Source: Patescibacteria group bacterium (GTDB lineage Bacteria; Patescibacteriota; Patescibacteriia; JAXHNJ01). From it: a DNA stretch of 64,000 nt. The stretch is from NCBI GenBank assembly GCA_034520665.1, contig JAXHNJ010000002.1, positions 62,230-126,229 on the forward strand, given 5' to 3'. Of the stretch, positions 608 to 39,060 are shown in pieces (positions within the stretch are counted from its first letter, which is position 1; every line of letters begins with the position of its first letter). The notes under the pieces are model-generated. The model worked only from the letters and a program-made list of their open reading frames with translations, did not search any database and was not told where the DNA came from. Position numbers and translations under genes: made by a program.

Positions 608-2123
608 ATTGTAACTTAATAGATTTTTTATTTAATCTTTTTCTATCCATATTCTTAACACAAACCGGATAATAGTCTGCTTTTTTTGAGGCATCAGCAA
701 ATTCTTTGTTTTTATTTTTTAAAACATCAAAAATTGTATTTGCAATTAATAAATTAAGCTTATCCTCTTTTACAACACTACCTAAATTATCTTTTAAATC
801 TATTTCTATTGTAAGTACAGGAGACATCTTATCATTTTTTGAAATATACATAAAAAATACGTTATTGTGTAAATCAGCAATTCTTTTATCTAACAATGCA
901 GACTTAATATTCTCTGTATAAACATTTGCTCCTCTAAAAAAAACAGTGCCGTCACTTCTACCAGCAATATAAATAAAAGGAAGTCTACATAATAATTGGG
1001 TATTTTTCGGCAACTTATTCAAATATTCATTAATATTAAACCCGTAATTATCGAGTAAATTAAACATCTTATCAAAACTTATTACTCCTCCCAAATCATG
1101 AATATTATACCTGATAAGAGGAGAAATGGAACTTGTTGTGGCGATAATCTCATTATTAATTTCCTCAACAAAGAAAAAAAGCGGATTATATTGCAATAGC
1201 ATAGGTCCTGCGTTTTTTAAATTCCCAAAAATATCTTTTGCCAATTTGCCATCTTCCATGCACATTCTTCTTATTTTTATTGATAAAAATGTTTCAGAAG
1301 CAGTCCCCGTCCCAAGTTCTGTTACCCCATAGTTAGAAAATATTTTGGGTATGTTAAAATTCTCTAAATTTATTCCTAGTTTTGAAGCAATATAGTCGCG
1401 CCAATTTTCCGGGAATCCCTCACCCCCAACAACTAAGGAAATAGGCACGCAATTATGAAATCCATTGCTATTTATTTTATCAGCCAAATCTTTAATATAT
1501 GGTGGATAACCAGAAATAATTATATGGTCAAATATTTTCTTAAAATTACTTATCACATCTAATGTAATTTCTATATCTGGCCCGGGATTTATTACAGTTA
1601 ATTTATATTTATCCGAGTAAGCAATTTCACGCATCAATCTTGATAATCTTTCACCACTTGGCCATATTCCATAGGCAAAACAATTAATAAATAATGTTTT
1701 GTGTTTTTTTAATTCGGCCAAATTTAATAATGCAAATTCAAATTGTGATCTAGTCCGATAATCTTCTTCTGGTAATCTAAACCAGTAAGTTGGCTTACCG
1801 GAAAATCCTGAGGTACCCTCGATAGAATGAGATTCACTTATTCTTGGATTAATTGATCTATCAACTAAAGAATATTTATTAATATAATTATGTTTATCTA
1901 TAATTGGTAATTTTTTAAATTCTTGGAAACTGTTTATAGAATATTTTAAATAATCATTTTTTTTTAAAAAGGATCTATAAGCTTTTACATTTTTTATTGC
2001 ATAATTAGCAATCCTAATCGCCCTATTTTCCGATCTTTTATTTATATTTGAAGTTGAAAGAAATTTAATAAATAGATTGCTTACAAGGGGTAAATTATTC
2101 AATTTTGCTATTATGCTCATCAT
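600..2123 (-). CDS. Adenylate-forming enzyme, phenylacetate-CoA ligase (PaaK)/CapK/F390-synthetase-like
   Basis: 507 aa. P-loop-like motif TSGFSGKPTYW near residue 100, as in PaaK-type ANL enzymes. Followed by a hinge and C-terminal domain. Translationally coupled to neighbours (4-nt gap upstream, 8-nt overlap downstream). Confidence 0.55.
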   Translation of the reverse strand: MMSIIAKLNNLPLVSNLFIKFLSTSNINKRSENRAIRIANYAIKNVKAYRSFLKKNDYLKYSINSFQEFKKLPIIDKHNYINKYSLVDRSINPRISESHSIEGTSGFSGKPTYWFRLPEEDYRTRSQFEFALLNLAELKKHKTLFINCFAYGIWPSGERLSRLMREIAYSDKYKLTVINPGPDIEITLDVISNFKKIFDHIIISGYPPYIKDLADKINSNGFHNCVPISLVVGGEGFPENWRDYIASKLGINLENFNIPKIFSNYGVTELGTGTASETFLSIKIRRMCMEDGKLAKDIFGNLKNAGPMLLQYNPLFFFVEEINNEIIATTSSISPLIRYNIHDLGGVISFDKMFNLLDNYGFNINEYLNKLPKNTQLLCRLPFIYIAGRSDGTVFFRGANVYTENIKSALLDKRIADLHNNVFFMYISKNDKMSPVLTIEIDLKDNLGSVVKEDKLNLLIANTIFDVLKNKNKEFADASKKADYYPVCVKNMDRKRLNKKSIKLQYV

Positions 2124-2127
2124 AACA

Positions 2128-2826
2128 TTATATTTTTATCTCTGGAGTTTTTTTTGTCAAATATTTCGAAAAAGCAGGATTCATTTTATTCATATTCTCC
2201 GCCGCTTTATTAATATTTAAACACATAGTAAAAGAGGGGCATTGATGATTAATCTTGCTATAAAAATAAGGACCACTAACTTTTTTAAAACCGAATATAA
2301 GATAACGATCAGTAAAAAGGGTGGATACTGAGATACAAAAATTATTTATTCCGCATTTTTTTGCATAAAGCATAGCCCCCTTAACCAAACCAAAATAAAT
2401 TCTGATATTTTTTCTATAAGTTTTAGATATAATAAATCTACTTAATTCTGCAATATTTTTATTATATTTTCTATATTCTTTCAATGAATAATAACTTTCC
2501 GAAGGAAGTTCTGGATTATATAAATCATTTGGCACAATTCTCATCATACCTATTATTATATTATTTCTATCAATAGCAATAATACTCGCAGTTCCACTTC
2601 GTTTATCAAATTCATCAATTTCTTGTTTTTCTGAATAGTTCTCAGGATTTAAATACCCTTTTTCTAGGCAATAAACTTCGTAACGCAATCTATAAGTTTT
2701 TTTTAATTCATCATCACTACTTGCAATTCTAAACTCTATTATTTCAGTAGAGTTGGATTGAAAAATATACTTAAATAATAAAATCCATTTTATGAAAATT
2801 GCCTTTAGTTTTTTTCTAAAATTCAT
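2128..2826 (-). CDS. GNAT-fold N-acyltransferase, N-acyl amino acid synthase / PEP-CTERM-associated acyltransferase / LuxI-like family (paralog A)
   Basis: 232 aa. Motif YRLRYEVYCLEKGYL followed by a SRF/ELSR-type segment, typical of the Acetyltransf_5 / autoinducer-synthase-like GNATs. Two paralogs lie at 5964..6671 and 9157..9849. Confidence 0.5.
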   Translation of the reverse strand: MNFRKKLKAIFIKWILLFKYIFQSNSTEIIEFRIASSDDELKKTYRLRYEVYCLEKGYLNPENYSEKQEIDEFDKRSGTASIIAIDRNNIIIGMMRIVPNDLYNPELPSESYYSLKEYRKYNKNIAELSRFIISKTYRKNIRIYFGLVKGAMLYAKKCGINNFCISVSTLFTDRYLIFGFKKVSGPYFYSKINHQCPSFTMCLNINKAAENMNKMNPAFSKYLTKKTPEIKI

Positions 2827-2861
2827 TTATTTACTATAAATATTTTACTCACTTCCGACAC

Positions 2862-2895
2862 CTTTCAATTATACCACTATACCACCAAAATCAAA
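2862..2895 (-). promoter_or_regulatory. Sigma-70-like promoter for GNAT-A operon (-35 TTGATT, 15-nt spacer, extended -10 TGgTATAAT)
   Basis: Minus-strand sense tttTTGATTttggtggtatagTGgTATAATtgaaagg lies about 40 nt upstream of the GNAT ATG. The TATAAT box is conserved in all three repeat copies. Confidence 0.4.
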
Positions 2896-3100
2896 AAAAC
2901 TCCAATTTCTCTGGAAGCTAAAAAAGCCCTAATCTAAAAGACTAAAGCCGGTTAATTTAAATTAATTCGTGAAAATAAATTAGTGGTAAAGTCCTGCACC
3001 TGCTGGTACAGCCGGGCGTTTTCTAAAGCTACCGCGGCTTGATTAGAAAGTGTAGAAAGTAGCTCAATATCTTCTTTGGTGTAAGCATCTTTAGAAATTT
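2880..3100 (-). repeat. Conserved ~220 bp element, copy A: 3' end of 7TM-GAF gene + terminator + GNAT promoter
   Basis: About 85-90% nucleotide identity to 6720..6945 and 9890..10105, while the flanking coding sequences are only distantly related at protein level. Confidence 0.7.
2893..2918 (-). terminator. Possible intrinsic terminator of the 7TM-GAF gene (imperfect hairpin GCTTCCAG-agaaa-TTGGAG followed by T7)
   Basis: Hairpin plus a 7-T run immediately 3' of the GAF-gene stop. Conserved in the three repeat copies. The stem is imperfect. Confidence 0.3.
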
Positions 3101-4400
3101 TATGACCTAAGATGAAAAGACCGTTGATTTGATCCTTAACCACAAAAGGTAGAACTATGGATACACCCATTTTTTTTAAAACTTGGGCCTGAGCTAAAAG
3201 CTCCTGGTTTTCTTTTTGCTTTGATCTGGATAATATTTCACCAATCACGACCGGTTTTTTAGTTTCCTCTAAATAGCGACAGAAATGCTGATAAGCACAG
3301 ACCTCTTCCAATTTATTCTTATCAAAACCAAGAATTTTATACAAAGAAAAAGGTTTTTGGCTGTTTCGGTTAGCAATGGCTACGGCTAGATTATCTAGGC
3401 GCATGGCATTTTGAATGGTTTTAATCACAACCTTAACCACCTCATCCAAATTAATAGTTTTAGAAATATTTTTTCCAAATTTTTCTAGAACTTCTTGATA
3501 ATCATAAAGACCAGAAAAGAAGTATTTATTGGCAAATCTTTTTAAAAATTTACTTAAATAATTAAAGCTTAGGAGAAATAAGGGAACAATAATAAGAGCC
3601 GAGAGATAAGAGCCTAAGGCAAAAGGACTTTTGAAGAAAAAATTATCAAACCAAAGAACAAAATAATAAGCGGAAAAAATAAAAAGAGCTAGTCCGACAT
3701 AAATAAATGATTTACGGAGAACAAAGCGGATGTCCATAAGACGGTGCTTAATAATGGAGTATGAAGTAACCCCAATAAAAATTAACATAAATAATGGCGC
3801 ATAAACACTAAAATTAATAATTCCAAACAAAGGTAATATCGCATTAGTTATAATACTAAGAAATGCCGAAATTGATATTCCCCAAAATAAATATTTTATT
3901 TGTTCCCTGAATATACCGCTACTGTTTCTAAACTTTATTAATAGATTTTTAAGAGACAGTCCTACATATATTAAAAAATACGCAATAAAAAAATAATACA
4001 TCACGCCTGGAATAGTTTCAGCACCCCAATCATGAATAATGGTTTCTTTAATATTTAATCTTGTCGGAGTTAATATTATAAAAATAAAAACTGGAATTGC
4101 TAAAATAATAAAATCTTTTTTTGTATATTTTCTTGTTAAATATGGAAAATAATTAGTAAATATCAATAGCAGATAAACTATAAAAATTGGACCAATAATG
4201 GTTAATTTTCCAAAAAATGTTGCAATATCAATATTTTTCGTAGTATCAGCAATAAGCAAAGTAGCTATCCATAAAGAAAGACTAAAAACTAATAATGAGA
4301 ATAATACATTAATAGGATTATTAGATTTTTTCTTATAAATAATAAAACCCAATATAATTGAAATTATTAAACTCGGTAGATATGTAATATATTTTATCAT
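2952..4400 (-). CDS. Polytopic membrane sensor: N-terminal multi-TM (histidine-kinase-type 7TM-like) domain + C-terminal GAF domain, no kinase/output domain
   Basis: 482 aa. About 8 hydrophobic helices in the first 300 aa. C-terminal GAF-like block (LAVAIANRN...LPFVVKDQINGLFILGHK...LSNQAAVALENARLYQQ). Ends without a HisKA/HATPase domain. Confidence 0.5.
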   Translation of the reverse strand: MIKYITYLPSLIISIILGFIIYKKKSNNPINVLFSLLVFSLSLWIATLLIADTTKNIDIATFFGKLTIIGPIFIVYLLLIFTNYFPYLTRKYTKKDFIILAIPVFIFIILTPTRLNIKETIIHDWGAETIPGVMYYFFIAYFLIYVGLSLKNLLIKFRNSSGIFREQIKYLFWGISISAFLSIITNAILPLFGIINFSVYAPLFMLIFIGVTSYSIIKHRLMDIRFVLRKSFIYVGLALFIFSAYYFVLWFDNFFFKSPFALGSYLSALIIVPLFLLSFNYLSKFLKRFANKYFFSGLYDYQEVLEKFGKNISKTINLDEVVKVVIKTIQNAMRLDNLAVAIANRNSQKPFSLYKILGFDKNKLEEVCAYQHFCRYLEETKKPVVIGEILSRSKQKENQELLAQAQVLKKMGVSIVLPFVVKDQINGLFILGHKISKDAYTKEDIELLSTLSNQAAVALENARLYQQVQDFTTNLFSRINLN

Positions 4401-4404
4401 TAGT

Positions 4405-5103
4405 TTAATCCTTTATAGCTATTAACATAATATTTTGACCCGCATAAACAATCTGACTATTAATTACCCTAAAATTATTTTTACTAAATAAACTTATATA
4501 ATCTTTAACGGAAAAAAAATTATAAAATCCCCCTTTTGCTTTTCTATCTATAATTTTATTAAAATACAGCAATATAATATATATTTTTATATTTTTTATA
4601 ATAAAGAATAACCCCCGAAAAAAACCATAATTTTTAAAAAATAACCGACAATCATTCTTAAATATTTTAATATTTTTGAATGATTTAAGTGGATCAGTCA
4701 CCACGATAATACCTCCTTTTTTAATTATTCTATAAAATTCTTTTACAATTAAATGTAAATGCTTTTTTTTAAAAACATACAATGTATTTATGCAGATAAT
4801 TCTATCAAATAAATTATTAGGAAAAAGTAATTTATTGCCTAGGTCTGCATGATATAATTTTGCATTTTTATGTTTTTCATTCAATAACTTCAGGGCTTTT
4901 TTTGAATTATCAATACTATGTACTTCATGGCCCATATCAAGAAGTTTTTTTGAGATTTGACCAGGTCCACATCCAGCATCAAGTATTATGTCTGAATTTC
5001 TGAGTTTTAAATTTTTAACTACTAAATTTAATAATTCATTATACGAGGGAGATAATTCCACAAACTTATTGTATGCCTTGTGATATTTATTCCAGAATTT
5101 CAT
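4405..5103 (-). CDS. Class I SAM-dependent methyltransferase
   Basis: 232 aa. Motif I ILDAGCGPGQ, acidic motif II SIDNS, motif post-I. A 4-nt gap to the downstream 7TM-GAF gene. Confidence 0.6.
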   Translation of the reverse strand: MKFWNKYHKAYNKFVELSPSYNELLNLVVKNLKLRNSDIILDAGCGPGQISKKLLDMGHEVHSIDNSKKALKLLNEKHKNAKLYHADLGNKLLFPNNLFDRIICINTLYVFKKKHLHLIVKEFYRIIKKGGIIVVTDPLKSFKNIKIFKNDCRLFFKNYGFFRGLFFIIKNIKIYIILLYFNKIIDRKAKGGFYNFFSVKDYISLFSKNNFRVINSQIVYAGQNIMLIAIKD

Positions 5104-5177
5104 TATTTTAAAAAATTAAAACTCAAAATTATTAGATTAAGAAGAACGGCGATTATTTGAAAAATTAAATGGCTCAT
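5103..5177 (-). CDS. Candidate 24-aa hydrophobic small ORF (MSHLIFQIIAVLLNLIILSFNFLK), translationally coupled
   Basis: ATG lies 8 nt after the ThiF-A stop. Its TAA overlaps the methyltransferase ATG as TAATG. It is below the ORF-track size cutoff and I found it by manual translation. Confidence 0.25.
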   Translation of the reverse strand: MSHLIFQIIAVLLNLIILSFNFLK

Positions 5178-5184
5178 TTCTTTA

Positions 5185-5952
5185 TTATTTAATAAATTCA
5201 GTTAAATCAATATGATTATATTTAGGGGGAATGTAATTTCTATCGCTAATTATTTTTATAATATTCGTAACTATAAGAGATGAGGTTAAATTTGAAGCAA
5301 CCGCAAGTTGAGGATTAAATTTATTTATCTTTTTAATTAGCTCACTACTTTTATTAATAATATATTCTGGCATTTTTATCATTCCATTTTTATATAAACT
5401 AACAATAAAATCTAATTCACTTTTGGGTTTATTATTTTTTAAAAAATCATCTAAAGGGCCTGTTTTTTTATTAATAGTAATGAGCAAGGCTCCAAATCCT
5501 AAATTCATAGGTATAAAAACAGTTTTATCTTCATCTATAGTTTTATCTATTAATTTATAAAAAATATCATTAAGGTCTAAAGTATTTATAATAAAATCAT
5601 AATTTTTTACTAAGCGTAAGTGATTTGCTTTAAATTCTTTTGAATATGCAGTTATATCAGACGAAGGATTTATTAATTTTATAATACATTCCAAGGATTT
5701 AGCTTTGTTTTTACTTAAAAAATCCAAATTAAATACTTGCCTGTTTAAATTTGAAATTGTAACATTGTCAAAATCAAACAAAGTAAATCTTGCAAATCCC
5801 GTCCTTGTTGCTAATAAGGCAATGTTTCCGCCAAGCCCACAACCAGCAAACATTAAACTTATACTTTTTATCTTTTCTTGCATATCAGAATCAATAAACA
5901 AACAATTTCTGCTAATCATTTCGTTGTAATTGTATTGATATTTGTTTAACAT
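5185..5952 (-). CDS. ThiF/MoeB/HesA-family E1-like adenylyltransferase (paralog A)
   Basis: 255 aa. Rossmann nucleotide motif FAGCGLGGN and the E1 signature ISNLNRQ. Only the adenylation domain is present (no rhodanese domain, no CxxC pairs). Its size resembles TcdA/MccB-core-like enzymes. Confidence 0.6.
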   Translation of the reverse strand: MLNKYQYNYNEMISRNCLFIDSDMQEKIKSISLMFAGCGLGGNIALLATRTGFARFTLFDFDNVTISNLNRQVFNLDFLSKNKAKSLECIIKLINPSSDITAYSKEFKANHLRLVKNYDFIINTLDLNDIFYKLIDKTIDEDKTVFIPMNLGFGALLITINKKTGPLDDFLKNNKPKSELDFIVSLYKNGMIKMPEYIINKSSELIKKINKFNPQLAVASNLTSSLIVTNIIKIISDRNYIPPKYNHIDLTEFIK

Positions 5953-5963
5953 CTTATATTTTT

Positions 5964-6671
5964 TTAAAACTCAAAATTATTTGATTTATAATTATAAAAA
6001 TAGAATAATAATCTATCTTTTTCTTTAACTTCGTCCGCTTTTTTTTTAATGTCAATAAAAAAGGGATAGTTGATGGCATTGAAGCAAAATTTGGGCTCAC
6101 CAATTAATTCAACTTCACCAACATAGTTATCAAGAGTTTTTAGAAACCATTTTTCCGCACAACCGAACCAGAATAAATAATCATTTTGCCTAGAAAAAAG
6201 ATAAATCGCTTTAAACATATCTAGCAAAAGCATTGTCTTCCTATAATCGGGGTGTATCATGAATCTTGATAATTCGGTTATTTTTTCTCGGGGAACATTT
6301 TTTAATCTTTTTACTAAATCAAATTCTTTTTCTGTGGGAAACCCAAGTGGCGAGTTCTTTATTATTCTTGAGGTACCAACAATGTTATTATAACGATCGA
6401 ACGCAATAATATGATCGGCGTATTTATCATATAAATCAGTTTCCTTTTTGTCGGGATACTCTTCTTTATTTAATAAGCCATCAACATTGCAATAAATATT
6501 ATATCTAAATTTATACACGCGCTCCATTAGTTCCTTGTTCTCTTCATCTCTAACAAAAATCAATTTGTATTGTTTATAAGGCCGCCTTAAATGAAACAAT
6601 AAATAAGCGCGCAGTAAAAATATTACTATGGGATTTTTGCTATTTTTTATTTTCTTTGCTGAAAAATTCAT
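5964..6671 (-). CDS. GNAT-fold N-acyltransferase, N-acyl amino acid synthase/LuxI-like (paralog B)
   Basis: 235 aa. Motif YKFRYNIYCNVDGLL and ELSRF. Distant paralog of 2128..2826 and 9157..9849. Confidence 0.5.
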   Translation of the reverse strand: MNFSAKKIKNSKNPIVIFLLRAYLLFHLRRPYKQYKLIFVRDEENKELMERVYKFRYNIYCNVDGLLNKEEYPDKKETDLYDKYADHIIAFDRYNNIVGTSRIIKNSPLGFPTEKEFDLVKRLKNVPREKITELSRFMIHPDYRKTMLLLDMFKAIYLFSRQNDYLFWFGCAEKWFLKTLDNYVGEVELIGEPKFCFNAINYPFFIDIKKKADEVKEKDRLLFYFYNYKSNNFEF

Positions 6672-6719
6672 TATATTACCCTTTGTTCAAATTCTTCTTT
6701 CTTTACCCTGCTTTAATTA

Positions 6720-6945
6720 TACCTAAAAAATTAAAAAAGCTCCAATTTCCCTGGAAGCCAAAAAAGCCCTAATCTAAAAGGTTAAAGCCGGTTGATTTAA
6801 ATTAATTCGTGAAAATAAATTAGTGGTAAAGTCCTGCACTTGCTGGTACAGCCGGGCGTTTTCTAAAGCAATAGAGGCTTGGTTGGTCAGAGAATTAAGA
6901 AGCTGTAGATCTTCTTTAGTTTAGGCATCTTTGGAAATCTTTTCA
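6720..6945 (-). repeat. Conserved ~220 bp element, copy B (GAF 3' end + terminator + promoter)
   Basis: Near-identical to 2880..3100. In this copy the GAF stop TAA is mutated to CAA and an upstream in-frame TAA is present. Confidence 0.7.
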
Positions 6946-8254
6946 CCTAAGACAATAATGCCGATCAATTTATTTTTAATAATCAAAGGCAGACACAAGG
7001 CCGCTTCAATTCTTTTCATATTAGCCTTTAATTTACCGATTTCCGACTTTTCACCCTGCCCATTACTTTTTAAAGACTCCAGTTTTTTGGTAAATAACTG
7101 GTTTTCTTTTTTCTAAAAGATAATTGGTGAGGAAATTATTTCTGACTAGAGAAATGCCGTTAGCTACGGAAAAGCCAATATTGCTCTTAACCTGGTAATT
7201 ATGGGTTTCTTGGTCAAATAATAAAACACCGGTTCGGTCCAGTTTCATGGTGTCTCTAATAGTTTTGACAATGGAAGTCAATGATTTGATCTAAATCAAT
7301 AGAATGAGTCAGTTTCTGGGCCAGTTTTTCCAGAGTAGCCTGGTAGTTGTAAATACTGGCAAAGAAGTATTTGTTGGCAATTCTTTCTAGGTAATTCTTT
7401 AAGGACTCAAAGAGGATTAAGCCGAGCAAAAGGACAATTGGGCCCCAAACACCCGGAGGAATGATTTCCTTGAAATAAGTCATTTCCAGCCAGTAAAGGC
7501 CGAGGGCGAGAAGGATAATTATAATAATGGTGGAAGCATAGATGGCAGTTCTTTTCACGACCAGGCGGATGTCCATGAGGCGGTGGCGGACGATGGCGTA
7601 GGAGGTGAAAACCACGAAAAAAATTATTGACTGAATACCTATATAACTAAATTCTTGAATATTAAATATAGGCAAAATAATGTTAGTTAAAATTGCAATA
7701 ACAGCAGAAATTAATATACCCAAGAAAACATATTTCATTTGCATTCTATGCAACCCTGAACTATTTTTATATTTTATTATTGCTTCGATAAAAGCATAAA
7801 TTATAAATAGAAGGAAATATATAATAAAAAATAAATAAAATGAACCGTAGATAAAATTTGTTCCCCATTCTTGAATATCTACATCTTTTACAATCAAGTT
7901 GGTGTACAGTAAAACTAATAATAATAATGGTACTATATAAATAAATAGTAACTTTTTTTTGGTAATTTCATTTTTATAAAAGGGGAATACGAGACTGAAA
8001 TGGAGTAATATTGCTGGTATTATTATTGGTCCTATAAAAACAATTTTACTTAAACTTAAAGCAATATTCTCATTTATTGCTCTATCTACTAAATAAGTGG
8101 AGAATATCCAAAATCCAATTACAAAAACTAAAAAACCAAAAATAATACTTTCTTTTTTGCCTTTAGATTCATAAAAAACATAAAAACAAAGCAAAAAATT
8201 GAGTAGTAAGATTATCAATGTAATTATTGAAGTAATATCAAATGAAAAATCCAT
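6790..8254 (-). pseudogene. Disrupted paralog of the 7TM-GAF sensor (fragmented into at least three frames)
   Basis: ORF 7256..8254 encodes the intact multi-TM N-terminal region and aligns with 2952..4400 (shared ...HRLMDIR...KYFF...Y.YQ motifs). GAF fragments appear in a different frame (7063..7281). The C-terminal ~50 codons are in a further frame with an internal TAA. Confidence 0.5.
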
Positions 8255-8262
8255 AATTAGTT

Positions 8263-9033
8263 TTATTTATTCGTATAAGCATCAAAAAATATTGGCACTG
8301 GCGCAAAATTAATTTTTACACCTTGAATAAGCTTAATTATTGCTGTTAAAGTAATCGAAGCCACAATATATGATCCAATACAAATTTGCGGATAATACCC
8401 TCTTTTTTTAATTTCTTGAAAAATACTATTAATATTTTTATTTTTTAAAAACGGAAGAGAATACTCTTCTAACGATTTAAATAATTTAATATAAAATTCA
8501 TGATCATTTTTAGGTATGTGATTGCCCCAAATTGATTCAGGCGATGCAGAATGTTTATTAAAAAGCAATAATAATCCTCGAAAACCCAAATTAAAGGGAC
8601 ATAATACAGTTTTATCATTTTTAATAAAATTCGAGATTACTGAAAAATAAATTTTATTAAGATCAACCGTGTTAACTACAAAATCATGTTTTTTTATTAA
8701 ACTTTTCAAAATTTTCTCATTAATATATTTATTTATTACCCTGATATTCGCATTAGAATTAATGTTTATTAAACGTTTTTTTAATCGCTTCGCTTTATTA
8801 TAATTTAAATCATCTAGAATATATGATTGTCTATTTAGATTTGAGATGTTAACTTCATCTCCGTCAGCAATTGTAATATTAGTGAATCCCATTCGAACCG
8901 CCACCTCTGAAATCACACTACCCAAACCACATCCAGCAAAAAGAATGCTAGTTTTTTTTATTTTTTTTTGTAAATTAGAGTCTATATAAATCCAATTTCT
9001 ACTTATAAACGTGTTATAATCAAAATTTTTCAT
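8263..9033 (-). CDS. ThiF/MoeB/HesA-family E1-like adenylyltransferase (paralog B)
   Basis: 256 aa. FAGCGLGS and VNISNLNRQ. About 30-35% identity by eye to 5185..5952. Confidence 0.6.
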   Translation of the reverse strand: MKNFDYNTFISRNWIYIDSNLQKKIKKTSILFAGCGLGSVISEVAVRMGFTNITIADGDEVNISNLNRQSYILDDLNYNKAKRLKKRLININSNANIRVINKYINEKILKSLIKKHDFVVNTVDLNKIYFSVISNFIKNDKTVLCPFNLGFRGLLLLFNKHSASPESIWGNHIPKNDHEFYIKLFKSLEEYSLPFLKNKNINSIFQEIKKRGYYPQICIGSYIVASITLTAIIKLIQGVKINFAPVPIFFDAYTNK

Positions 9034-9156
9034 TTTTTATATTATTGTTGGTTAATTCTTGTTTATCTATTGCATATACTACTCTAAATCCTTGATAAAA
9101 GAAAATGTAAACCTTCATGAATACAAAATATATTTATTCAAAAAAATTATTTATAA

Positions 9157-9849
9157 CTAGTGTATACTATAACTATTCCCTTCACCATTATACTTAATTA
9201 GCCCTTTTTTTAAGTACTTCCATAAGTTTATATTTTCATTTTTAAGGTTTTCTTCCATTTCTGAAATATCTAAAATAAAAGGCGTGGTAATCCCCTGATA
9301 TAATGTCGGCGGACCAATTTTTTTAAAAGGAAAACCAAGTTTAATTAATATGGGGTATAAATTATCATCCATAACGGCAAAAACGTGAGTAATATTCTTT
9401 TCTTTCACAAAAGTGTACATGCCTTTAATCAGGGCGAGAAGGAGAAAATGCTTCCGGTATTTTTTAGCGACAATCAGACGGGATATTTCAGCCAATTTGC
9501 TTCTGTTCTTTTGAAGGATATCAACTTCAATTTTCATGTTTTTCTCTATCGGAAATCCCATTTCTGAGTTTAAAATTAATCTGACCGTGGCGGCTAAATT
9601 TCTAGTTTGTTTTTCTCTTAGTATAAAATGAACTGATTTATCATCATAATTGTCTTTTTCTTTTTTCCCCGGATGTTTATCCTTGTCAATATAACTAAAT
9701 TCCTCGCAAAATACTTCGTAGCGAAGCTTAAAAATTTTTTCTAGTTCAGATTTAGAGTCAGTAGTGTAAAAAATAAACTTATCAGAAAAGCTTCTTTGGA
9801 ACTGCCAAAATTCATAAAATCTTCTTAACTTTTTTATTATTTTTATCAT
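9157..9849 (-). CDS. GNAT-fold N-acyltransferase, N-acyl amino acid synthase/LuxI-like (paralog C)
   Basis: 230 aa. Motif FKLRYEVFCEEFSY and EISRL. Confidence 0.5.
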   Translation of the reverse strand: MIKIIKKLRRFYEFWQFQRSFSDKFIFYTTDSKSELEKIFKLRYEVFCEEFSYIDKDKHPGKKEKDNYDDKSVHFILREKQTRNLAATVRLILNSEMGFPIEKNMKIEVDILQKNRSKLAEISRLIVAKKYRKHFLLLALIKGMYTFVKEKNITHVFAVMDDNLYPILIKLGFPFKKIGPPTLYQGITTPFILDISEMEENLKNENINLWKYLKKGLIKYNGEGNSYSIH

Positions 9850-9889
9850 TTTCTATAACTAGTGCTCACTTCCCTTCTTGTTTTCATTA

Positions 9890-10105
9890 TACCTAAAAAA
9901 TCAAAAAAGCTCTAATTTCTCTGGAAGCCAAAAAAGCCCTAATCTAAAAGGCTAAAGCCGGTTGATTTAAATTAATTCGTGAAAATAAATTAGTAGAAAA
10001 GTCCGGCACCTGCTGGTACAATCGGGTGTTTTCTAAAGCTACCGCCGCTTGATTAGAAAGTGTAGAAAGTAGCTCAATATCTTCTTTGGTGTAGGCGTCT
10101 TTTTT
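9890..10105 (-). repeat. Conserved ~220 bp element, copy C, including a ~135 bp remnant of a 7TM-GAF gene 3' end with no gene body
   Basis: Near-identical to 2880..3100 (closer to copy A than to copy B). Homology stops abruptly at about 10104, some 70 nt before the tRNA-Trp 3' end. Confidence 0.65.
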
Positions 10106-10177: not shown

Positions 10178-10252
10178 TGGCAGGGGCACTAGGATTCGAA
10201 CCTAGAATAAGGGTTTTGGAGACCCTTGTGATAGCCATTTCACTATGCCCCC
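10178..10252 (-). tRNA. tRNA-Trp (anticodon CCA)
   Basis: Hand-folded. Acceptor GGGGGCA/TGCCCCT (one G-U). D-arm GTGA-AATGGCTA-TCAC. Anticodon stem AGGGT/ACCCT with loop CTCCAAA. T-arm CTAGG-TTCGAAT-CCTAG. Encoded CCA. 75 nt. Confidence 0.8.
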
Positions 10253-10523
10253 AATAAAAATCCCGCTTATTGTTTTTATAAACCTATTCTTTTTATTAAA
10301 CCTTGATATGAAGAAACTAAATCTCTTTAACTTTTTTTTCCTCTCTTTAGATGCTTCTCTATTATCATAGGCTTCGTAATACTTAAGCTCCAATGGTCGT
10401 CTGTTTTTTGTTGAATACACATCTCCTCTGTAGTAGTCCATCAATCTATTTTTTAAATTTTCAGTTCTGCCAATATATAATCGTTCATCTTTTTTTGCTT
10501 CTTAAAAAATACACATAATACAT
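10202..10523 (-). pseudogene. GIY-YIG nuclease (YhbQ-like) with a -1/+1 frameshift in an A7 run; 3' end overlaps tRNA-Trp
   Basis: N-terminal MYYVYFLRSKK in one frame (ATG 10523..10521). The rest, DERLYIGRTENLKNRLMDYYRGDVYSTKNRRPLELKYYEAYDNREASKERKKKLK, is in the adjacent frame. The shift sits at the homopolymer 10489..10495. No stop occurs before the ORF runs into the tRNA. Confidence 0.5.
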
Positions 10524-10566
10524 AATATTTCTTTCGCACCATCAAAATCTGTCGTTTATATTTAAA

Positions 10567-10722
10567 CTACTTCACTTCCTTATGTAAAGTATGTTTACGG
10601 CACTTTTTACAATGCTTTTTAATGTTGAGCTTCTCTTTTATTTTCTTTTTATTCTTTTTTGAGTAGTAATTTATATTATTACACTCAGTGCATTTAAGTT
10701 TAATCAGATTGTCTTGGGACAT
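10567..10722 (-). CDS. rpmG: 50S ribosomal protein L33
   Basis: 51 aa (below the ORF-track cutoff). [51 protein letters not shown] has the L33 CxxC...Y.T.KN...CxxC..HT pattern. Confidence 0.7.
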
Positions 10723-10759
10723 AATTTTAAGTTAATTTAAGTTAGTTAGTTTAATTAAG

Positions 10760-11131
10760 TTAATTAAGGTTGTTCTGGCTTGATAAATAGTTAATATATT
10801 TATTCAATCCAATCAATAATCCTTCATAATCCTGATCAACTCTTGTAAATTTCTCTAAGTTCAAATATTTCAAGCCTTTAGCTACTCTTAAATGACTCCT
10901 TATTTCAAAAATTTCTCCTCTTGCTTGGTATAAAATTCTAATCTTATCCTTATAAAAATAACGTCCTTGACTTTCAGCAATATTAGCAATAACAGAATTA
11001 GAAGCTCTTTTCAATTGATTAATGAGGGCATATTTTTCAGTATCAGGAAAATTATTTGTTATTTGATAAATACAAAGAACTAATTTATATCCTTTCTGCC
11101 AAATATTTAATTTAAAGAACGCTTTTACCAT
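10760..11131 (-). CDS. Four-helix-bundle protein (23S rRNA intervening-sequence protein / Avd-like family)
   Basis: 123 aa. FKLNIWQKGYKLVLCIYQIT..FPDTEKYALINQLKRASNSVIANIAES.GRYFYKDKIRILYQARGEIFEI matches the conserved IVS-protein pattern (L.VWQKA..L...IY.....FP..E...L..Q..RAA.S...NIAEG..R....D). Confidence 0.6.
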   Translation of the reverse strand: MVKAFFKLNIWQKGYKLVLCIYQITNNFPDTEKYALINQLKRASNSVIANIAESQGRYFYKDKIRILYQARGEIFEIRSHLRVAKGLKYLNLEKFTRVDQDYEGLLIGLNKYINYLSSQNNLN

Positions 11132-11221
11132 AATTCATTTCTTTTCACGCCACCAAAATGTCTTTATTAATATATCGAAATTAACTAAATCAACTTAAGA
11201 AACCTTAACTAACTTAACTTA

Positions 11222-11347
11222 TGGAGCCGAGGAGAGGAATTGAACCCCCAACCTACTGTTTATCCCGAAGTTCTCGAAATTTTGCCATGGAGCCAGCGCC
11301 TCGGGCCCAGAACCGACGACCTACGGTTTACCCGCCTGCCGAACGCC
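11222..11347 (-). other. Two tandem tRNA 3'-end-like fragments (T-arm-like + acceptor 3' strand + TCCA), not foldable as complete tRNAs
   Basis: Each unit (66 and 60 nt) ends ...GGCTCCA like the neighbouring tRNA-Thr genes and contains a GGTTC-type T-loop-like segment. I could not find a matching 5' acceptor strand. Confidence 0.3.
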
Positions 11348-11423
11348 TGGAGCCGGAGGTGGGAGTCGAACCCACGACTTGCTGTTTACAAAACAGCTAC
11401 TCTGACCACTGAGTTACTCCGGC
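11348..11423 (-). tRNA. tRNA-Thr (anticodon TGT)
   Basis: Hand-folded. GCCGGAG/CTCCGGC acceptor. ACTC-AGTGGTCA-GAGT D-arm. GCTGT-TTTGTAA-ACAGC anticodon arm. GTGGG-TTCGACT-CCCAC T-arm. Encoded CCA. 76 nt. Confidence 0.8.
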
Positions 11424-11560
11424 GCCCGGCGACTGGCGGGCAGACAAAACAGTTGTGCCGATAGCCAGAGGCTATCGAACCTTCTCGATTCGCCAAGCGA
11501 ATCGGGACTCTAGCCAACTGAGCTACGCCGGCAAAAGACAGACTGTTTATCAGCTCAAAG
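11424..11560 (-). other. tRNA-like element with canonical 5' start (GCCGGCGTAGCTCAGTTGGCTAGAGT) but two inserted perfect 7-bp hairpins; no canonical cloverleaf
   Basis: It starts like an Ile/Ala-type tRNA. It is then followed by GATTCGC-ttg-GCGAATC and GATAGCC-tctg-GCTATC hairpins and no matching acceptor 3' strand. Confidence 0.3.
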
Positions 11561-11646
11561 TGGTGGGCCGAGTAGGATTCGAACCTACGAAGCCCGAAGG
11601 CGCCAGATTTACAGTCTGGTGCATTTGACCACTCTGCCACCGACCC
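11561..11646 (-). tRNA. tRNA-Tyr (anticodon GTA), type II with long variable arm
   Basis: Hand-folded. GGGTCGG/TCGGCCC acceptor (two G-U). CCAGA-CTGTAAA-TCTGG anticodon arm. Variable hairpin GCC-ttcg-GGC. GTAGG-TTCGAAT-CCTAC T-arm. ACCA end. 86 nt. Confidence 0.8.
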
Positions 11647-11663
11647 ATTACTTTGAGCTGATT

Positions 11664-11915
11664 TTATTTTAAGATACTATTTAGATATTTTCGGCCTTGG
11701 CCAGATTTTAAAAACTTTTCTCTCTTCATTGCCTCTGACCTAGTTTTAAAAATTTCATGATATATTAATTTCCAAGGTTTTCTTCCTTTAGTATACGGGC
11801 ATTTTCCTTGATTATGTTTTTTAATTCTATTATTCAAATTTACAGTTTGACCCGTTTGACCACTTCGGTATCCACCCACTATTGCTTGCCATCTTTTATT
11901 TTTTTTATAATGCAT
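11664..11915 (-). CDS. GIY-YIG nuclease (YhbQ-like)
   Basis: ORF 11664..11969; the likely start is the internal Met (MHYKKNKRWQAIVGGY...). GQTVNLNNRIKKHNQGKCPYTKGRKPWKLIYHEIFKTRSEAMKREKFLK is the conserved GIY-YIG C-terminal pattern. The extreme N-terminal 18 codons of the track ORF read through a duplicated tRNA-Tyr fragment. Confidence 0.55.
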   Translation of the reverse strand: MHYKKNKRWQAIVGGYRSGQTGQTVNLNNRIKKHNQGKCPYTKGRKPWKLIYHEIFKTRSEAMKREKFLKSGQGRKYLNSILK

Positions 11916-11947
11916 TTGCCTGCCCGCCAAAACGGAAGTGAAGGCGG

Positions 11948-11995
11948 GACCACTCTGCCACCGACCCATTACTTTGAGCCGATTTTATTTAAGTG
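11948..11995 (-). repeat. Duplicate of the tRNA-Tyr 5' end plus ~25 nt of its upstream flank
   Basis: ggaccactctgccaccgacccattactttgagc(c/t)gattttatttaag also occurs at 11620..11668. Together the two copies bracket the GIY-YIG gene. Confidence 0.7.
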
Positions 11996-12140
11996 CTAGC
12001 CCACGCGCAGACTTGTCACCCTACGGGTGATCCTCCAAAGGAGGAAACCGCTAATTCTTTGAAAAAGACACAAAATAAGTTCTACTCCTTACCCCCGACA
12101 TTCGTCGGGGCAAGCATGAAGTTGCTCTACCCGCTACCTC
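11990..12140 (-). pseudogene. Degenerate tRNA-Thr(GGT)-like copy with a 22-nt insertion in the anticodon loop, truncated D-arm and no T-arm
   Basis: GGGTAGAGCAACTTCATG[CTTGCCCCGACGAATGTCGGGG]GTAAGGAGTAG equals the intact neighbour (...GGTAGAGCAACTCCATGGTAAGGAGTAG) once the bracketed 22 nt are removed. The downstream sequence forms unrelated hairpins. Confidence 0.35.
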
Positions 12141-12216
12141 TGGAGCCCACCGTCGGATTTGAACCGACGACCTACTCCTTACCATGGAGTTGCTCTACCA
12201 ACTGAGCTAGGTGGGC
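12141..12216 (-). tRNA. tRNA-Thr (anticodon GGT)
   Basis: Hand-folded. GCCCACC/GGTGGGC acceptor. GCTC-AGTTGGTA-GAGC D-arm. ACTCC-ATGGTAA-GGAGT anticodon arm. GTCGG-TTCAAAT-CCGAC T-arm. Encoded CCA. 76 nt. Confidence 0.8.
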
Positions 12217-13420: not shown

Positions 13421-14209
13421 TCAATCTTTATTTAATTTCATTTCTATGATTGTCCCGTCTTCCAGTCTAACTTTGTAAGTCTTCATAATAATATTCCAGG
13501 AAATGACTTTGCCTCTCCCCTGCTTAGTTTTTATCTTACTTTCAAGAGAAGGAAACTTTTTAGCCATTTCACGGTAATAATCCTCCTCATAAGCCAGGCA
13601 ACAAAATAATTTACCACAGACACCAGAAAGCCGATCACTGCCCCGATGGGCTATTTGCTGATCACGAGCTAAATCAGTAGAAATATTACCCAGTTTTTTA
13701 AGGTGAGTCATACAGCAAAGTTTTCGACCACAGGGACCAAAGCCGCCTTCCTGTTTGACTTCATCTCTGGTTCCTACTTGTTGTAGACGGATTGATTTTT
13801 GAAAATTTCTAGTTAAATCTTTTACTAAATCTCGGAAATCAACTCGGCCATCAGCAATAAAAGTGAAAGTTAAACGACCACCGTCAAAAGAGAAAAAAGA
13901 ATTAAGCAACTTCATAGGTAGATTGTGTTTGTCAACCATCTTCTTACAATATTCTACAGCTTCTTTTGCTTGGTTTTTATACTTTTTTATCTTTTCTAGA
14001 TCATCTGGCTGAGCCTTTCTAATAAAACTAACTTCTTTTTCTTTAACAATTTCTTCCGTTTTAAAGCTTTCCAAAACAGATGTATTTTCTATTCCTTGAT
14101 CAGTTTTAACAATAACAACATCTCCCTTTTTTAATTTAGCACCACCTGATTTTACGACAATTATATCACTCCAGGGATGTACTCTAATTTTTATGGCCGA
14201 AAATACCAT
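13421..14209 (-). CDS. PSP1 C-terminal domain protein (RicT/YaaT-like)
   Basis: 262 aa. Conserved FGPCGRKLCCM...GVCGKLFCCLAYEEDYY cysteine motifs of the PSP1/RicT family. Confidence 0.6.
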   Translation of the reverse strand: MVFSAIKIRVHPWSDIIVVKSGGAKLKKGDVVIVKTDQGIENTSVLESFKTEEIVKEKEVSFIRKAQPDDLEKIKKYKNQAKEAVEYCKKMVDKHNLPMKLLNSFFSFDGGRLTFTFIADGRVDFRDLVKDLTRNFQKSIRLQQVGTRDEVKQEGGFGPCGRKLCCMTHLKKLGNISTDLARDQQIAHRGSDRLSGVCGKLFCCLAYEEDYYREMAKKFPSLESKIKTKQGRGKVISWNIIMKTYKVRLEDGTIIEMKLNKD

Positions 14210-14213
14210 TTAT

Positions 14214-14801
14214 TTATAGACTATACTTAACAAAACGAGATACTTTGATATTCTCACCAAGTTTAGCTATTTTTTCAGTTATTAAATCTTCGATTTTTTT
14301 CTTATCTTCCTTAATATAACTCTGTTTTAACAGACAAACCTCTTCATAAAATTTATTTATTTTACCTTTTACAATTTTATCTATTATTTCCGCAGGTTTA
14401 TTTTCTTTTTCCAGCTGTTCTTTTATTATTTCTTTTTCCTTATCTAAAACTTCATCCGGTACATTTTCCGGTGATAAATACTGTGGATCCATAGCCACAA
14501 CCTGCATAGCCAGATTTTTGCCTAATTCTTTAAATTCTTTATTTTTAGCCACAAAGTCTGTTTCACAATTCAACTCTACTAAAGATGCTGATTTGTTATC
14601 ATTGTGTACATAACAAGCAATCATCCCCTGAGAAATTTCTCTGGTTTGTTTCTTAGCCGCAATTTCCTCTCCCTTTTTACGAAGCGCCTCAATAGCTTTT
14701 TTTGCATCACCCTTAGTTTCCTCCAGAGCTTTTTTTACATCAACAATACCAGCCCCTGTTTTTTCTCGGAGTTCTTTAATTAATTTATTATCTATTTTCA
14801 T
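14214..14801 (-). CDS. tsf: Elongation factor Ts
   Basis: 195 aa. N-terminal LIKELREKTGAGIVDVKKALEE UBA-like EF-Ts signature. Immediately downstream of rpsB. Confidence 0.85.
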   Translation of the reverse strand: MKIDNKLIKELREKTGAGIVDVKKALEETKGDAKKAIEALRKKGEEIAAKKQTREISQGMIACYVHNDNKSASLVELNCETDFVAKNKEFKELGKNLAMQVVAMDPQYLSPENVPDEVLDKEKEIIKEQLEKENKPAEIIDKIVKGKINKFYEEVCLLKQSYIKEDKKKIEDLITEKIAKLGENIKVSRFVKYSL

Positions 14802-38334: not shown

Positions 38335-38375
38335 TAAAATAGGGCGAATCCTTGATCCGCCCTTTTATAAGGCTG

Positions 38376-38573
38376 TTACTTGTATATATACCTTATATTT
38401 CTTTTTTCTCCTTCTTTTCTTTCTTCATCTTTCTTTTTTTCAATTTCAGTTCTCTGGTCTGCCCCAGGATAACGACAATGAGGGCAACTATGACGCATCC
38501 TCCAGCCGCAACGGGGACAAATAGAGCTAATTCCTGGCATATTAAGGCCTCCTTTCAAAAAAAGAACAAACAA
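38376..38573 (-). CDS. Small zinc-ribbon protein (CPRCG...CPHC) with Lys/Glu tail, on high-GC island
   Basis: 65-aa ORF; the likely start is the internal MPGISSICPRCGW... Four Cys in two CxxC pairs. Confidence 0.3.
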   Translation of the reverse strand: MFVLFLKGGLNMPGISSICPRCGWRMRHSCPHCRYPGADQRTEIEKKKDEERKEGEKRNIRYIYK

Positions 38574-38851
38574 ATTACATAAAAAATAGGCCTTCTTTTT
38601 GGAAGGTCTAGTTTTATGTGCTTATTAACTAATTTATAGCTTTTTTACAACTTAACTAAAACCTTCCGCCAGATGAGGCCTTTTTTAGATTTTTTAACGG
38701 CTAATTTTCTAGAGTTAAATTCCATGAAAAGTATTTAATTAAGTTGTTAACAGTTTATATCATTTTTTTAAATCTGTCAAACTAATATCTTTTTTAAAAT
38801 AAAAAAGGGGCAAATCCAACAAACGTCAGATTGCCCCCTACAAAAAAACAA

Positions 38852-39046: not shown

Positions 39047-39060
39047 TACCTTACCCCCAT

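Follow-up and report, generated by a model that had tools for sequence, protein, structure and literature searches.

Kinase-less 7TM-GAF sensor copies in a Patescibacteria gene array as probable recombination fragments of histidine-kinase genes

The 7TM-GAF sensor genes described here are probably 5′ fragments of histidine-kinase genes, recombination by-products that are undergoing gene conversion and decay, and we place the probability of this reading at roughly 0.6. On this reading the copies are ordinary genome turnover and no new kind of receptor. They lie in a 64,000-nt stretch of DNA from a Patescibacteria group bacterium (contig JAXHNJ010000002.1 of GCA_034520665.1, positions 62,230 to 126,229), hereafter called the window, which holds three copies, A, B and C. 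The array overruns the window, as a fourth truncated copy, D, and a full-length kinase, P0002, lie just past position 1.

All array features located within the window are on the minus strand. In the direction of transcription, the array begins at a tRNA-Trp gene (10178–10252), which forms its upstream boundary, and continues with remnant C, the joint J described below, GNAT3 (9157–9849) and the intact ThiF-family adenylyltransferase ThiF2 (8263–9033). Copy B follows with its own J, GNAT2 (FeeM/Acetyltransf_5; 5964–6671), ThiF1 (5185–5952) and a class I SAM methyltransferase (4405–5103) directly upstream of copy A, which is in turn followed by J, GNAT1 (FeeM/autoinducer-synthase-like; 2128–2826), a 507-aa PaaK/F390-synthetase-like ligase (600–2123) and a second methyltransferase, MT2 (243 aa), whose 5′ part (1–607) runs off the window. 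Next, outside the window, come copy D, J, a further GNAT, gene 490 and P0002. Gene order outside the window was taken from accession numbering and not from DNA (P0002 is 489, the GNAT 491, copy D or P0003 492, the PaaK-like ligase MDZ7798494, GNAT1 495, copy A 496 and GNAT3 503); the leftward DNA ends 996 nt past the window and everything beyond is known as protein only.

The genes between the sensor copies are in good order. None of the nine neighbouring genes is interrupted, and GNAT1, GNAT2 and ThiF1 are each intact. The GNATs are mutually 27–30% identical in amino acid sequence (GNAT2 to GNAT1 and GNAT3 included) and the two ThiF proteins 40%, which marks the flanking genes as old paralogues. 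All three GNATs, predicted enzymes, pass the Pfam FeeM cut-off of 27 bits (GNAT3 59.3, GNAT1 40.0, GNAT2 59.2), and GNAT3 lies above the TIGR03694 cut-off of 111.95 bits with 165.8, while GNAT1 (85.1) and GNAT2 (89.9) lie below it. At the protein level GNAT3 is 98% identical to the GNAT outside the window (MDZ7798491.1), such that C, its joint and GNAT3 have a near-identical twin at the other end of the array in D, its joint and that GNAT. A profile scan of the array genes revealed no recombinase or invertase, and neither an exosortase nor a PEP-CTERM gene was seen among them.

Copy A (2952–4400) is an open reading frame of 482 aa that ends at the GAF–HisKA linker, immediately after the residues QDFT. 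It scores 54.9 bits for HisKA_7TM (PF16927, gathering threshold 28.6 bits over a 7TM region of ~220 residues) and 39.2 bits for GAF (PF01590; PF13185 and PF13492 were also counted as GAF), and HisKA and HATPase_c are absent. Copy B scores 63.8–65.3 bits for HisKA_7TM (63.8 for the repaired ORF) and, once repaired, 45–52 bits for GAF; the corresponding scores of copy D are 29.1 and 33.2 bits. The profile search returned neither HisKA nor HATPase_c in B, C or D, which agrees with an earlier, sequence-only reading of this DNA in which no copy had a kinase domain. That reading also called copy A intact; its frame is indeed open, but relative to the family the whole kinase half is missing. Among the 120 best homologues of A and of the repaired B, proteins of ~720–760 aa with both HisKA and HATPase_c account for nearly all. 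The full complement of 7TM, GAF, HisKA and HATPase_c is found in P0002, which lies seven genes downstream, outside the window, at the end of the array, and in P0038 (MDZ7798145), which is on another contig (455,760 bp) in the same accession block. A is homologous to P0002, and B to P0038, as far as QDFT, beyond which the full-length proteins go on with KTLQQKVDEQ. The earlier suggestion that only one receptor is needed thus holds in a different sense, in that the full-length P0002 and P0038 are the only kinase-competent genes.

Copies A, B, C and D share one breakpoint, at which QDFT passes into TNLFSRIN, and each is fused there to the same joint of ~110 nt, J, upstream of a GNAT gene. J is present four times, as three copies in the window and in the tail of D/P0003, and its 21-nt core is found at three places in the window, where 0.07 would be expected by chance. 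The window copies are 89–97% alike, with differences at 4–11 of 79 non-coding positions. These shared features point to one truncation event, at the GAF–HisKA linker of a full-length 7TM-GAF histidine kinase, as the origin of all four copies. Judged by consensus matches alone, J is terminator-plus-promoter-like. In copy A (2868–2984), where the coding tail reads TNLFSRINLN, it has a terminator-like hairpin at 2925–2949 and, ahead of GNAT1, two copies of a −10-like box; in copy B (6716–6824), with the tail TNLFSRINLNQPALTF, it has two terminator-like motifs of a hairpin plus T-run and a promoter-like TTGGAG-18-TATAAT ~45 nt upstream of the GNAT2 start; and in copy C (9886–9994), upstream of GNAT3, it has a terminator-like hairpin at 9935–9953. 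The fold z-scores of J (−1.2, 0.1 and −1.3) are not significant and GGTATAAT is not enriched across the window. Rfam returned no structured RNA in J, its sole matches being four tRNAs, and a metagenome scan for the invariant 21-mer of J gave five matches, all of them chance and confined to 21–22 nt.

Beyond the breakpoint the copies differ in where they end. At the position of the TAA stop of copy A (2952–2954), copy B has CAA (6792–6794) and its frame runs on to a TAG at 6774–6776. The earlier reading took this as a mutated stop and a sign of decay; the CAA is there, but the proposed direction was wrong, as CAA is also found in C (9962–9964) and in D/P0003, where the frame reads INLNQPALAF before the stop. 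Since three of the four copies have CAA, the TAA of copy A is probably the derived state. The tails are not conserved, ending in TNLFSRINLN in A, in NQPALAF in B, C and D, and in NRNRWAKIRWSSDYQRELILA in a related organism. We considered the C-terminal INLN of copy A as an MccB-type peptide substrate for ThiF and rejected this, since only A ends in Asn and the tails of B, C, D and the relative differ.

Copy C (9944–10102) retains ~50 terminal codons of an A/D-type sensor, followed by the tail, and starts 76 nt downstream of tRNA-Trp. Homology to A extends from 10102 to 9910 at 93% nucleotide identity. An in-frame stop lies seven codons before this homology begins and a usable start codon is missing, so that C is not an expressible ORF. 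The earlier view of C as a terminal remnant was correct; it is ~150 nt long and lies beside the tRNA gene. It is, however, more than a rotting gene, being attached to the terminator/promoter-like joint that precedes GNAT3. The last ~200 codons of copy A are nearly identical to copy D, of which the NCBI annotation covers only 281 aa; the 7TM half of D is in frame with P0003 on an independent Logan contig. Copy A, and probably copy D, is open for ~485 codons in DNA of 25–30% GC, which would be unexpected of long-dead genes and counts against regarding them as by-products; A and D may be recent, or functional kinase-less proteins.

The clearest decay is seen in copy B (6774–8254), which had been described as split over at least three frames with an internal TAA, a description borne out by ORF translation and minimal repair. 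The minus-strand frames run from 8254 to 7256 (332 aa), 7281 to 7063 and 7019 to 6774, with an in-frame TAA at 6921–6923. Removal of one base at 7273–7276 and of one A at 7083–7088, with TAY in place of the TAA, restores one ORF of 492 aa that is colinear with A and aligns end to end both with P0038 and with a related metagenomic locus (L025). Lesion 1 is one extra base in GAC-TTCC-ATT (7273–7276), outside any long homopolymer, where P0038 has D-S-I-V (IIDSIVK) and the relative E-S-I-V (IIESIVK in L025). Lesion 2 is a +1 frameshift in an A6 run (7083–7088) within what is YQELESL in P0038 and the relative (VIYQELESL in P0038 and L025). Lesion 3, the TAA at 6921–6923, is TAC in A, C and the relative and Tyr in P0038, which is known here as protein only (KDAYTKED in P0038 and L025). 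Comparison with related sequences therefore finds P0038 and L025 unbroken at all three sites, each of which interrupts the GAF domain of B. On its lesions relative to a close intact homologue and on the colinearity regained by minimal repair, copy B is a predicted pseudogene, derived from a 7TM-GAF gene of the kinase-less type. The A6 run was also considered as a site of phase variation; this was rejected, as the tract is too short and two more lesions are present.

Copy B is also composite. Its N-terminal 7TM module (~aa 1–220; 7595–8254) has a GC content of 0.18–0.25 and no close relative, with amino acid identities of 22% to P0038 and 36% to A. The TM-linker and GAF tract (6825–7594) has a GC content of 0.30–0.46, contains all three lesions and is 95–96% identical in amino acid sequence to the full-length paralogue P0038 (MDZ7798145.1). 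The GC step coincides with the boundary between the 7TM and GAF modules. Copy B is thus an apparent chimera of a unique 7TM half and a P0038-like GAF half, and the linker-GAF tract is best read as a putative gene-conversion or recombination tract, the boundaries of which, like the direction of conversion, were deduced from protein identity and GC. Horizontal transfer of the GC-rich half from another organism was considered and dropped, intragenomic conversion being simpler once P0038 had been placed in the same accession block and presumably the same metagenome-assembled genome (MAG). The dN/dS of the GAF half is 0.057, against 0.044 and 0.137 in neighbouring genes, which indicates purifying selection overall and is expected if this half is periodically copied from a functional paralogue.

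The same mosaic pattern recurs across the family. Amino acid identities of the N-terminal and C-terminal halves are 22% and 96% for B and P0038, 30% and 91% for A and D, 22% and 99% for P0005 and P0010, 22% and 97% for P0006 and P0007, and 73% and 60% for P0004 and P0006. The 7TM halves are unique (22–37% identity) and the GAF halves are common to paralogues, and a directly oriented 828-nt tract at 97.6% (L001; P0005–P0010) links a truncated to a full-length copy. At the level of sequence identity, reassortment of 7TM and GAF modules is clearly seen in this family. Paralogues within the genome are furthermore closer to each other than to their positional counterparts in the related organism: B is 95% identical to P0038 and 87% to the relative's B-type copy (about the 89% between that copy and P0038), and J is 89–97% alike within the genome and only ~65–70% to the relative's J. 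This pattern argues for concerted evolution by gene conversion.

The related organism is ~80% identical at the nucleotide level and has the same truncated architecture with the same breakpoint. Its B-type copy, intact where window copy B is broken, has a frameshift of its own (AAAAAT to AAAAT), seen in two assemblies, and a frameshift at another site suggests that the decay of this gene type is real. The adjacency across J differs, with B-J-GNAT2 here and B-type-J-GNAT3 in the relative, where it is taken from contigs of <2 kb that cross a repeat and may reflect an assembly join. The truncation predates the split from this relative, and hence the truncated form has persisted; this too counts against the by-product reading, as persistence could reflect function rather than repeated refreshment.

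A simple series of events would account for the array. J may have arisen as the novel joint of a tandem duplication that extended from the intergenic region upstream of the operon as far as the kinase linker. The GAF-J segment would then have been spread and made uniform, and the units reshuffled, by unequal crossing-over of the RecA type and by gene conversion, with anchor points in J itself and in two conserved coding motifs, RHRLMDIR and ENARLYQQVQDFT; truncated copies would occasionally be overwritten from functional full-length paralogues. As truncated copies cannot signal as kinases, they would not be individually maintained and would decay, as B, C and the relative's B-type copy have done. 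J would persist as the terminator of the fragment before it and the probable promoter of each GNAT operon, which would also explain the survival of remnant C.

Three other readings were weighed against this one. If the lesions in B were sequencing, assembly or polishing errors, B would be an intact kinase-less 7TM-GAF gene like A. One of the frameshifts does fall in a homopolymer, and the lesions lie in a tract ~96% identical to a paralogue, where short-read graphs break and polishing is least reliable. Logan contigs of SRR26473340 stop at 7412 and 6780, so that the lesions fall in the only stretch they leave uncovered, and the 72-aa and 61-aa fragment ORFs of B found no match when an independent contig across the lesions was sought. 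The short annotation of D, despite its in-frame 5′ half on a Logan contig, may also signal a local contig or annotation problem. Nevertheless, the Logan contigs show no differences from the window over 7,941 nt, AT-rich and homopolymer-rich sequence included, and the other array genes are uninterrupted. Of the lesions, one is a base substitution that creates TAA and another an insertion outside any long run. Errors frequent enough to yield three independent lesions within 360 nt would be far out of line with the accuracy of the remaining window, and two assemblies show the B-type copy of the relative frameshifted at a different site. We therefore regard error as very unlikely. More weight, though still doubtful, can be given to the idea that the kinase-less proteins are functional receptors or modulators (decoys or partners), paired with their own NAS-like GNAT/ThiF, and that B was lost recently. 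The open frames of A and D with recognisable HisKA_7TM and GAF domains are consistent with this, as are the pairing, in each unit, of a 7TM module and a GNAT that are both unique and the sharing of the truncated form with the relative. The kinase family also shows synteny with ligase and methyltransferase genes across many genomes, and in genomes other than this one the PaaK-like ligase family immediately precedes homologous kinases of full length. However, both B-type copies open to examination are broken, and independently so; C is a stump; the C-terminal tail varies among the copies and the relative; and a protein that lacks a DHp domain has no obvious way of producing an output. Moreover, no other genome in a collection of 5.8 billion proteins has an A-type truncated protein. 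In the contigs of species-representative genomes, a set from which the source genome is absent, copy A matched only kinases of 31–36% identity.

It is also conceivable, but unlikely, that the array is a recombinational reservoir in which silent 7TM modules and their cognate synthases are moved onto a kinase gene through the shared GAF segment, thereby switching receptor specificity. Such a role would fit the reassortment of 7TM and GAF-kinase halves, the near-identical GAF tracts that join truncated and full-length copies (L001; B–P0038), the differing adjacency across J between genomes and the full-length kinase at the end of the array. Yet the GAF halves of A and D are only 65–69% identical in amino acid sequence to the adjacent P0002, which is too low for efficient homologous exchange, and no conserved sequence upstream of the 7TM modules would permit non-reciprocal cassette replacement. 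The array has no recombinase or invertase, a single crossover would irreversibly delete the intervening genes, and the differing adjacency may itself be the assembly join mentioned above. Nothing indicates a programmed mechanism.

Among known systems, the closest likeness in domain content is to PrsK (TIGR02916), the XrtA/PEP-CTERM kinase. Copies A, B and D resemble it in their N-terminal 7TM domain and GAF domain, P0002 and P0038 add HisKA and HATPase_c, and the neighbouring GNATs match FeeM/TIGR03694; a passage in PMC7293339, citing PMC3187218, links FeeM/NAS-type synthases to PrsK-containing loci. Copy A nonetheless reaches 51.4 bits against an equivalog cut-off of 300, over the N-terminal 466 of 679 profile positions only. 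There are further differences: the kinase half is missing from the window copies, the host MAG belongs to the Patescibacteria, and the partner genes encode ThiF, a methyltransferase and a PaaK-like ligase.

Bacterial histidine-kinase paralogues undergo lineage-specific expansion, domain shuffling and pseudogenisation, and tandem paralogues can evolve in concert by gene conversion. The array shares with this pattern the swapping of modules on a transmitter/GAF core, paralogues that are closer within the genome than orthologues are, and the broken copies left behind. It differs in the unusual sharpness of its breakpoints, which fall repeatedly at two conserved coding motifs, and in that one novel terminator/promoter-like joint has itself been propagated four times. 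As in CdiA-CT/CdiI, Rhs and pilS loci, one complete gene is accompanied by a row of incomplete copies with a common junction and their own partner genes, and there is evidence of recombination at the junction. Here, though, the arrangement is mirrored, the orphans being 5′ modules that lie upstream of the complete gene; a toxin/immunity logic is absent, and the copies are too dissimilar to the complete gene beside them to exchange with it easily.

If read as recombining fragments, the output-less 7TM-GAF proteins of this locus should be annotated as truncated kinase fragments, one of them dead, although NCBI lists the pieces as separate proteins. An ultra-small candidate-phyla genome of ~1.15 Mb would still carry a recombining paralogue array, in which a propagated duplication joint, probable conversion tracts with motif-defined ends and independent decay in two related organisms can be followed. 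Were the reservoir role true, it would offer a simple way to vary receptor specificity by re-pairing a single kinase output with a new 7TM receptor and signal-synthase set, and would apply the orphan-module logic of CDI/Rhs toxins and pilin cassettes to a signalling receptor; the present evidence does not require it. Two further candidate orphan sensors were set aside, P0077 being a split full-length kinase in which a HisKA-HATPase ORF comes after it and P0039 sitting at a contig end. An independent truncation was found in another genome, where the sequence breaks after DIKEA and a promoter-like TTGGAA...GGTATAAT follows, upstream of a full-length kinase.

Every gene between positions 1 and 10252 of the window is on the minus strand; the order of transcription is tRNA-Trp (10178–10252), copy C, a remnant of about 150 nt of a sensor 3′ end (10102–9944), GNAT3 (9849–9157), ThiF2 (9033–8263), sensor B (8254–6774), GNAT2 (6671–5964), ThiF1 (5952–5185), a methyltransferase (MT; 5103–4405), sensor A (4400–2952), GNAT1 (2826–2128), a PaaK/F390-synthetase-like ligase (2123–600) and the start of a second methyltransferase (MT2; 607–1) that runs out of the window. 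The sensor/GNAT array (1–10100) forms a low-GC block (0.22–0.32 per kb vs 0.30–0.47 in the remaining window) adjoining tRNA-Trp, a setting like that of an island; the array showed no integrase. The NCBIfam model PRK14852 (989 aa, ‘hypothetical protein’) is matched by GNAT1 in its GNAT-like N-terminal region (approximately residues 30–205) and by both ThiF proteins in its ThiF region (approximately residues 314–553). Fused GNAT-ThiF proteins thus exist elsewhere, which would argue for functional coupling of the two enzymes.

A domain search on copy A identified HisKA_7TM and GAF domains and no kinase domains, as the sequence-only reading had anticipated. That reading called A intact, which holds insofar as A, and probably the fourth copy D outside the window, are open ORFs; however, A is itself truncated relative to its full-length homologues. 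With few exceptions, the 120 best homologues found for A and repaired B are proteins of ∼720–760 aa that carry HisKA and HATPase_c. Homology between A and the full-length kinase P0002, and between B and the full-length kinase P0038, stops at ...ENARLYQQVQDFT, past which the full-length proteins read KTLQQKVDEQ... and the window copies TNLFSRINLN.... All sensor copies are fragments of full-length kinases with one propagated joint in common; they are not kinases, and the working kinases sit outside the window. The earlier observation of decaying sensor genes was essentially right, but its interpretation has to be reframed in these terms.

The joint, J, begins at the breakpoint and extends as far as a GGTATAAT box that precedes each GNAT start codon by ∼35–45 nt (2868–2984, 6716–6824 and 9886–9994, minus strand). 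Its three window copies differ at 4–11 of 79 non-coding positions, while the flanking genes are far more divergent (amino acid identities of 27–30% for the GNATs, 40% for the ThiFs and 22–37% for the 7TM halves). J holds two hairpin-plus-T-run motifs and TTGGAG-18-TATAAT, and fits a former intergenic region comprising an upstream gene’s putative terminator and a putative operon promoter, judging only by consensus matches. It folded no better than shuffled sequence, and no enrichment of GGTATAAT was found within the window. The −10-like box occurs twice in tandem in the J of copy A (2868–2883), as GGTATAGT GGTATAAT, and once, as GGTATAAT, in B and C.

Copy B is readable only across three frames with an in-frame TAA, which bears out the initial description. 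Three repairs (one base removed at 7273–7276, one A taken out of the A6 run at 7083–7088, and TAA 6921–6923 read as TAY) restore a single 492-codon ORF, colinear with A and encoding HisKA_7TM and a complete GAF domain. The comparison with relatives that had been proposed showed two independent comparators, P0038 and a related organism’s locus in three metagenomes (L025–L027), to be intact at exactly these three sites, and the nine genes neighbouring B contain no interruption. Logan contigs of SRR26473340 showed 0 differences from the window over 7,941 nt; they end at 7412 and 6780, the lesions fall between, and a spanning contig was sought among the independent Logan contigs and not found, so that the lesions are without read-level or second-assembly support. 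A sequencing or assembly artefact nevertheless seems very improbable, and B is probably a pseudogene. The CAA at its terminal stop position, previously taken as a decayed TAA, had been read backwards: CAA is common to B, C and D, all of which read ...INLNQPAL(A/T)F*, making A’s TAA the likelier derived state and CAA uninformative on the decay of B.

Beyond the window, the array was followed through NCBI protein accessions, which run parallel to window coordinates from the PaaK-like ligase (MDZ7798494) through GNAT1 (495), A (496), MT (497), ThiF1 (498), GNAT2 (499), the N-terminal part of B (501) and ThiF2 (502) to GNAT3 (503). Accession 492 (P0003) is the C-terminal 281 aa of copy D, which ends in the J tail and is 90–91% identical to A; 491 is a GNAT 98% identical to GNAT3, and 489 is P0002 (738 aa). 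One Logan contig reaches 996 nt beyond the window and encodes MT2, after which comes a 7TM half that shares the P0003 reading frame. This makes D a probable open gene of ∼488 aa with its own 7TM module. The array thus has four J-truncated copies and a complete kinase at its end, in an order taken from accession numbering and one contig, not full DNA. As the 7TM half of D (L024:2323–3923, SRR26473340) is in frame with MDZ7798492.1, annotated at just 281 aa, there are two explanations: a difference in the deposited contig at this place, or annotation from an internal Met.

Copy B is also a chimera, 22% identical to P0038 over residues 1–205 and 96% over residues 215–470, with the switch at the conserved RHRLMDIR motif coinciding with a GC step from ∼0.22 to ∼0.42. 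P0038 (MDZ7798145.1, on a 455,760-bp contig) falls within the accession block of the window genes, which makes it most likely a paralogue encoded by the same Patescibacteria MAG. Other members of the family repeat this pattern. Identities of N- and C-terminal halves were 30% and 91% for A and D and, among family homologues, 22% and 99% for P0005 and P0010 (828 nt at 97.6% in L001, a locus of MAG GCA_964415025.1), 22% and 97% for P0006 and P0007, and 73% and 60% for P0004 and P0006. In that unrelated, Patescibacteria-type MAG a separate truncated sensor precedes a full-length kinase, with which it has the 828-nt tract in common (L001:10624–11451 and 13742–14569); a repeated promoter-like element, TTGGAAAAATGGGG...GGGGTATAAT, precedes two different downstream genes (L001:8711–8768 and 11515–11572).

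The related organism (∼80% nucleotide identity; GNAT3 and ThiF2 orthologues 93% and 82% identical in amino acids) has a B-type GAF half cut at the identical breakpoint; its J has diverged, its tail peptide differs, and the GNAT3 and ThiF2 orthologues come next. Window B is 95% identical to P0038 vs 87% to the relative’s B-type copy, which is about as distant from P0038 (89%) as from window B, and J is 89–97% alike within the genome vs 65–70% to the relative’s J. These comparisons point to within-genome homogenisation, not strong constraint on J. The relative’s copy, sound at the window-B lesion sites, has its own frameshift in two assemblies. Between the two organisms dN/dS of the GAF half is 0.057 (0.044 and 0.137 for intact neighbours), which, with the decay, fits recurrent copying from a full-length, functional paralogue with subsequent decay.

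We put the probability at about 0.6 that the copies are kinase-gene fragments made by duplication, homogenised by recombination and decaying. At its base are one linker breakpoint fused to J and present four times, mosaic GAF halves, homogenisation inside the genome, and lesions in both organisms, three in B and an independent one in the relative. J would have originated as the new junction of a tandem duplication whose ends lay in the intergenic region ahead of the operon and in the kinase linker; L001 may offer an independent parallel, with a different breakpoint, directly after DIKEA, and a similar promoter-like sequence preceding a full-length kinase. The units may later have been spread and reshuffled by unequal crossing-over and gene conversion, for which conserved coding motifs and J would have provided the anchors. 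Truncated copies without DHp and ATPase domains would not be individually maintained and would decay; the persistence of J and remnant C may be due to J separating, and probably driving, the GNAT operons.

It is doubtful that the kinase-less proteins function as receptors or decoys, each with synthases of its own: the A and D ORFs are open and truncation persists across species, but the copies were broken independently, the tail is unconserved and A-type truncated proteins are absent from the other genomes of a 5.8-billion-protein collection. There is a still smaller chance that the locus is a genuine recombinational reservoir of 7TM modules, as reassortment of modules and the differing adjacency across J in the relative might suggest; against it, the identity of A and D to the adjacent full-length kinase is low (65–69%), upstream homology is lacking and the array has no recombinase.

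Duplication, homogenisation and decay of kinase fragments is of an already known kind, in which histidine-kinase paralogues turn over, shuffle domains and evolve in concert; the locus illustrates cleanly the ordinary turnover that recombination drives. With orphan-module arrays (CDI/Rhs, pilS) it has only structure in common. The HisKA_7TM and GAF pair resembles that of PrsK-type kinases, and the GNATs beside the sensors resemble the TIGR03694/FeeM N-acyl amino acid synthases that a passage of PMC7293339 (citing PMC3187218) ties to such kinases; however, A scores under the PrsK equivalog threshold (51 vs 300 bits) and the window copies are no kinases. Other genomes conserve the synteny methyltransferase, PaaK-like ligase, full-length kinase and response regulators, which suggests a small-molecule pathway tied to full-length kinases, a separate question from decay.

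Elsewhere in the window, 727 nt without an ORF of at least 90 aa (38334–39061) adjoin its highest-GC kilobases (39000–41000, 0.42–0.47); Rfam at gathering thresholds gave no match in either. Four tRNA genes (Trp, Thr, Tyr, Thr) cluster on the minus strand at 10178–12216, together with ribosomal protein L33 (10567–10722) and a 23S_rRNA_IVP/bAvd-like four-helix protein (10760–11131). Interleaved with the tRNA genes are a GIY-YIG ORF (11664–11969; Pfam, 47 bits) and a degenerate GIY-YIG-like ORF (10202–10444), the latter overlapping tRNA-Trp. Repeats of 43–47 nt copy the tRNA-Tyr 5′ region (11604–11669) beside the GIY-YIG ORF (11925–11990).
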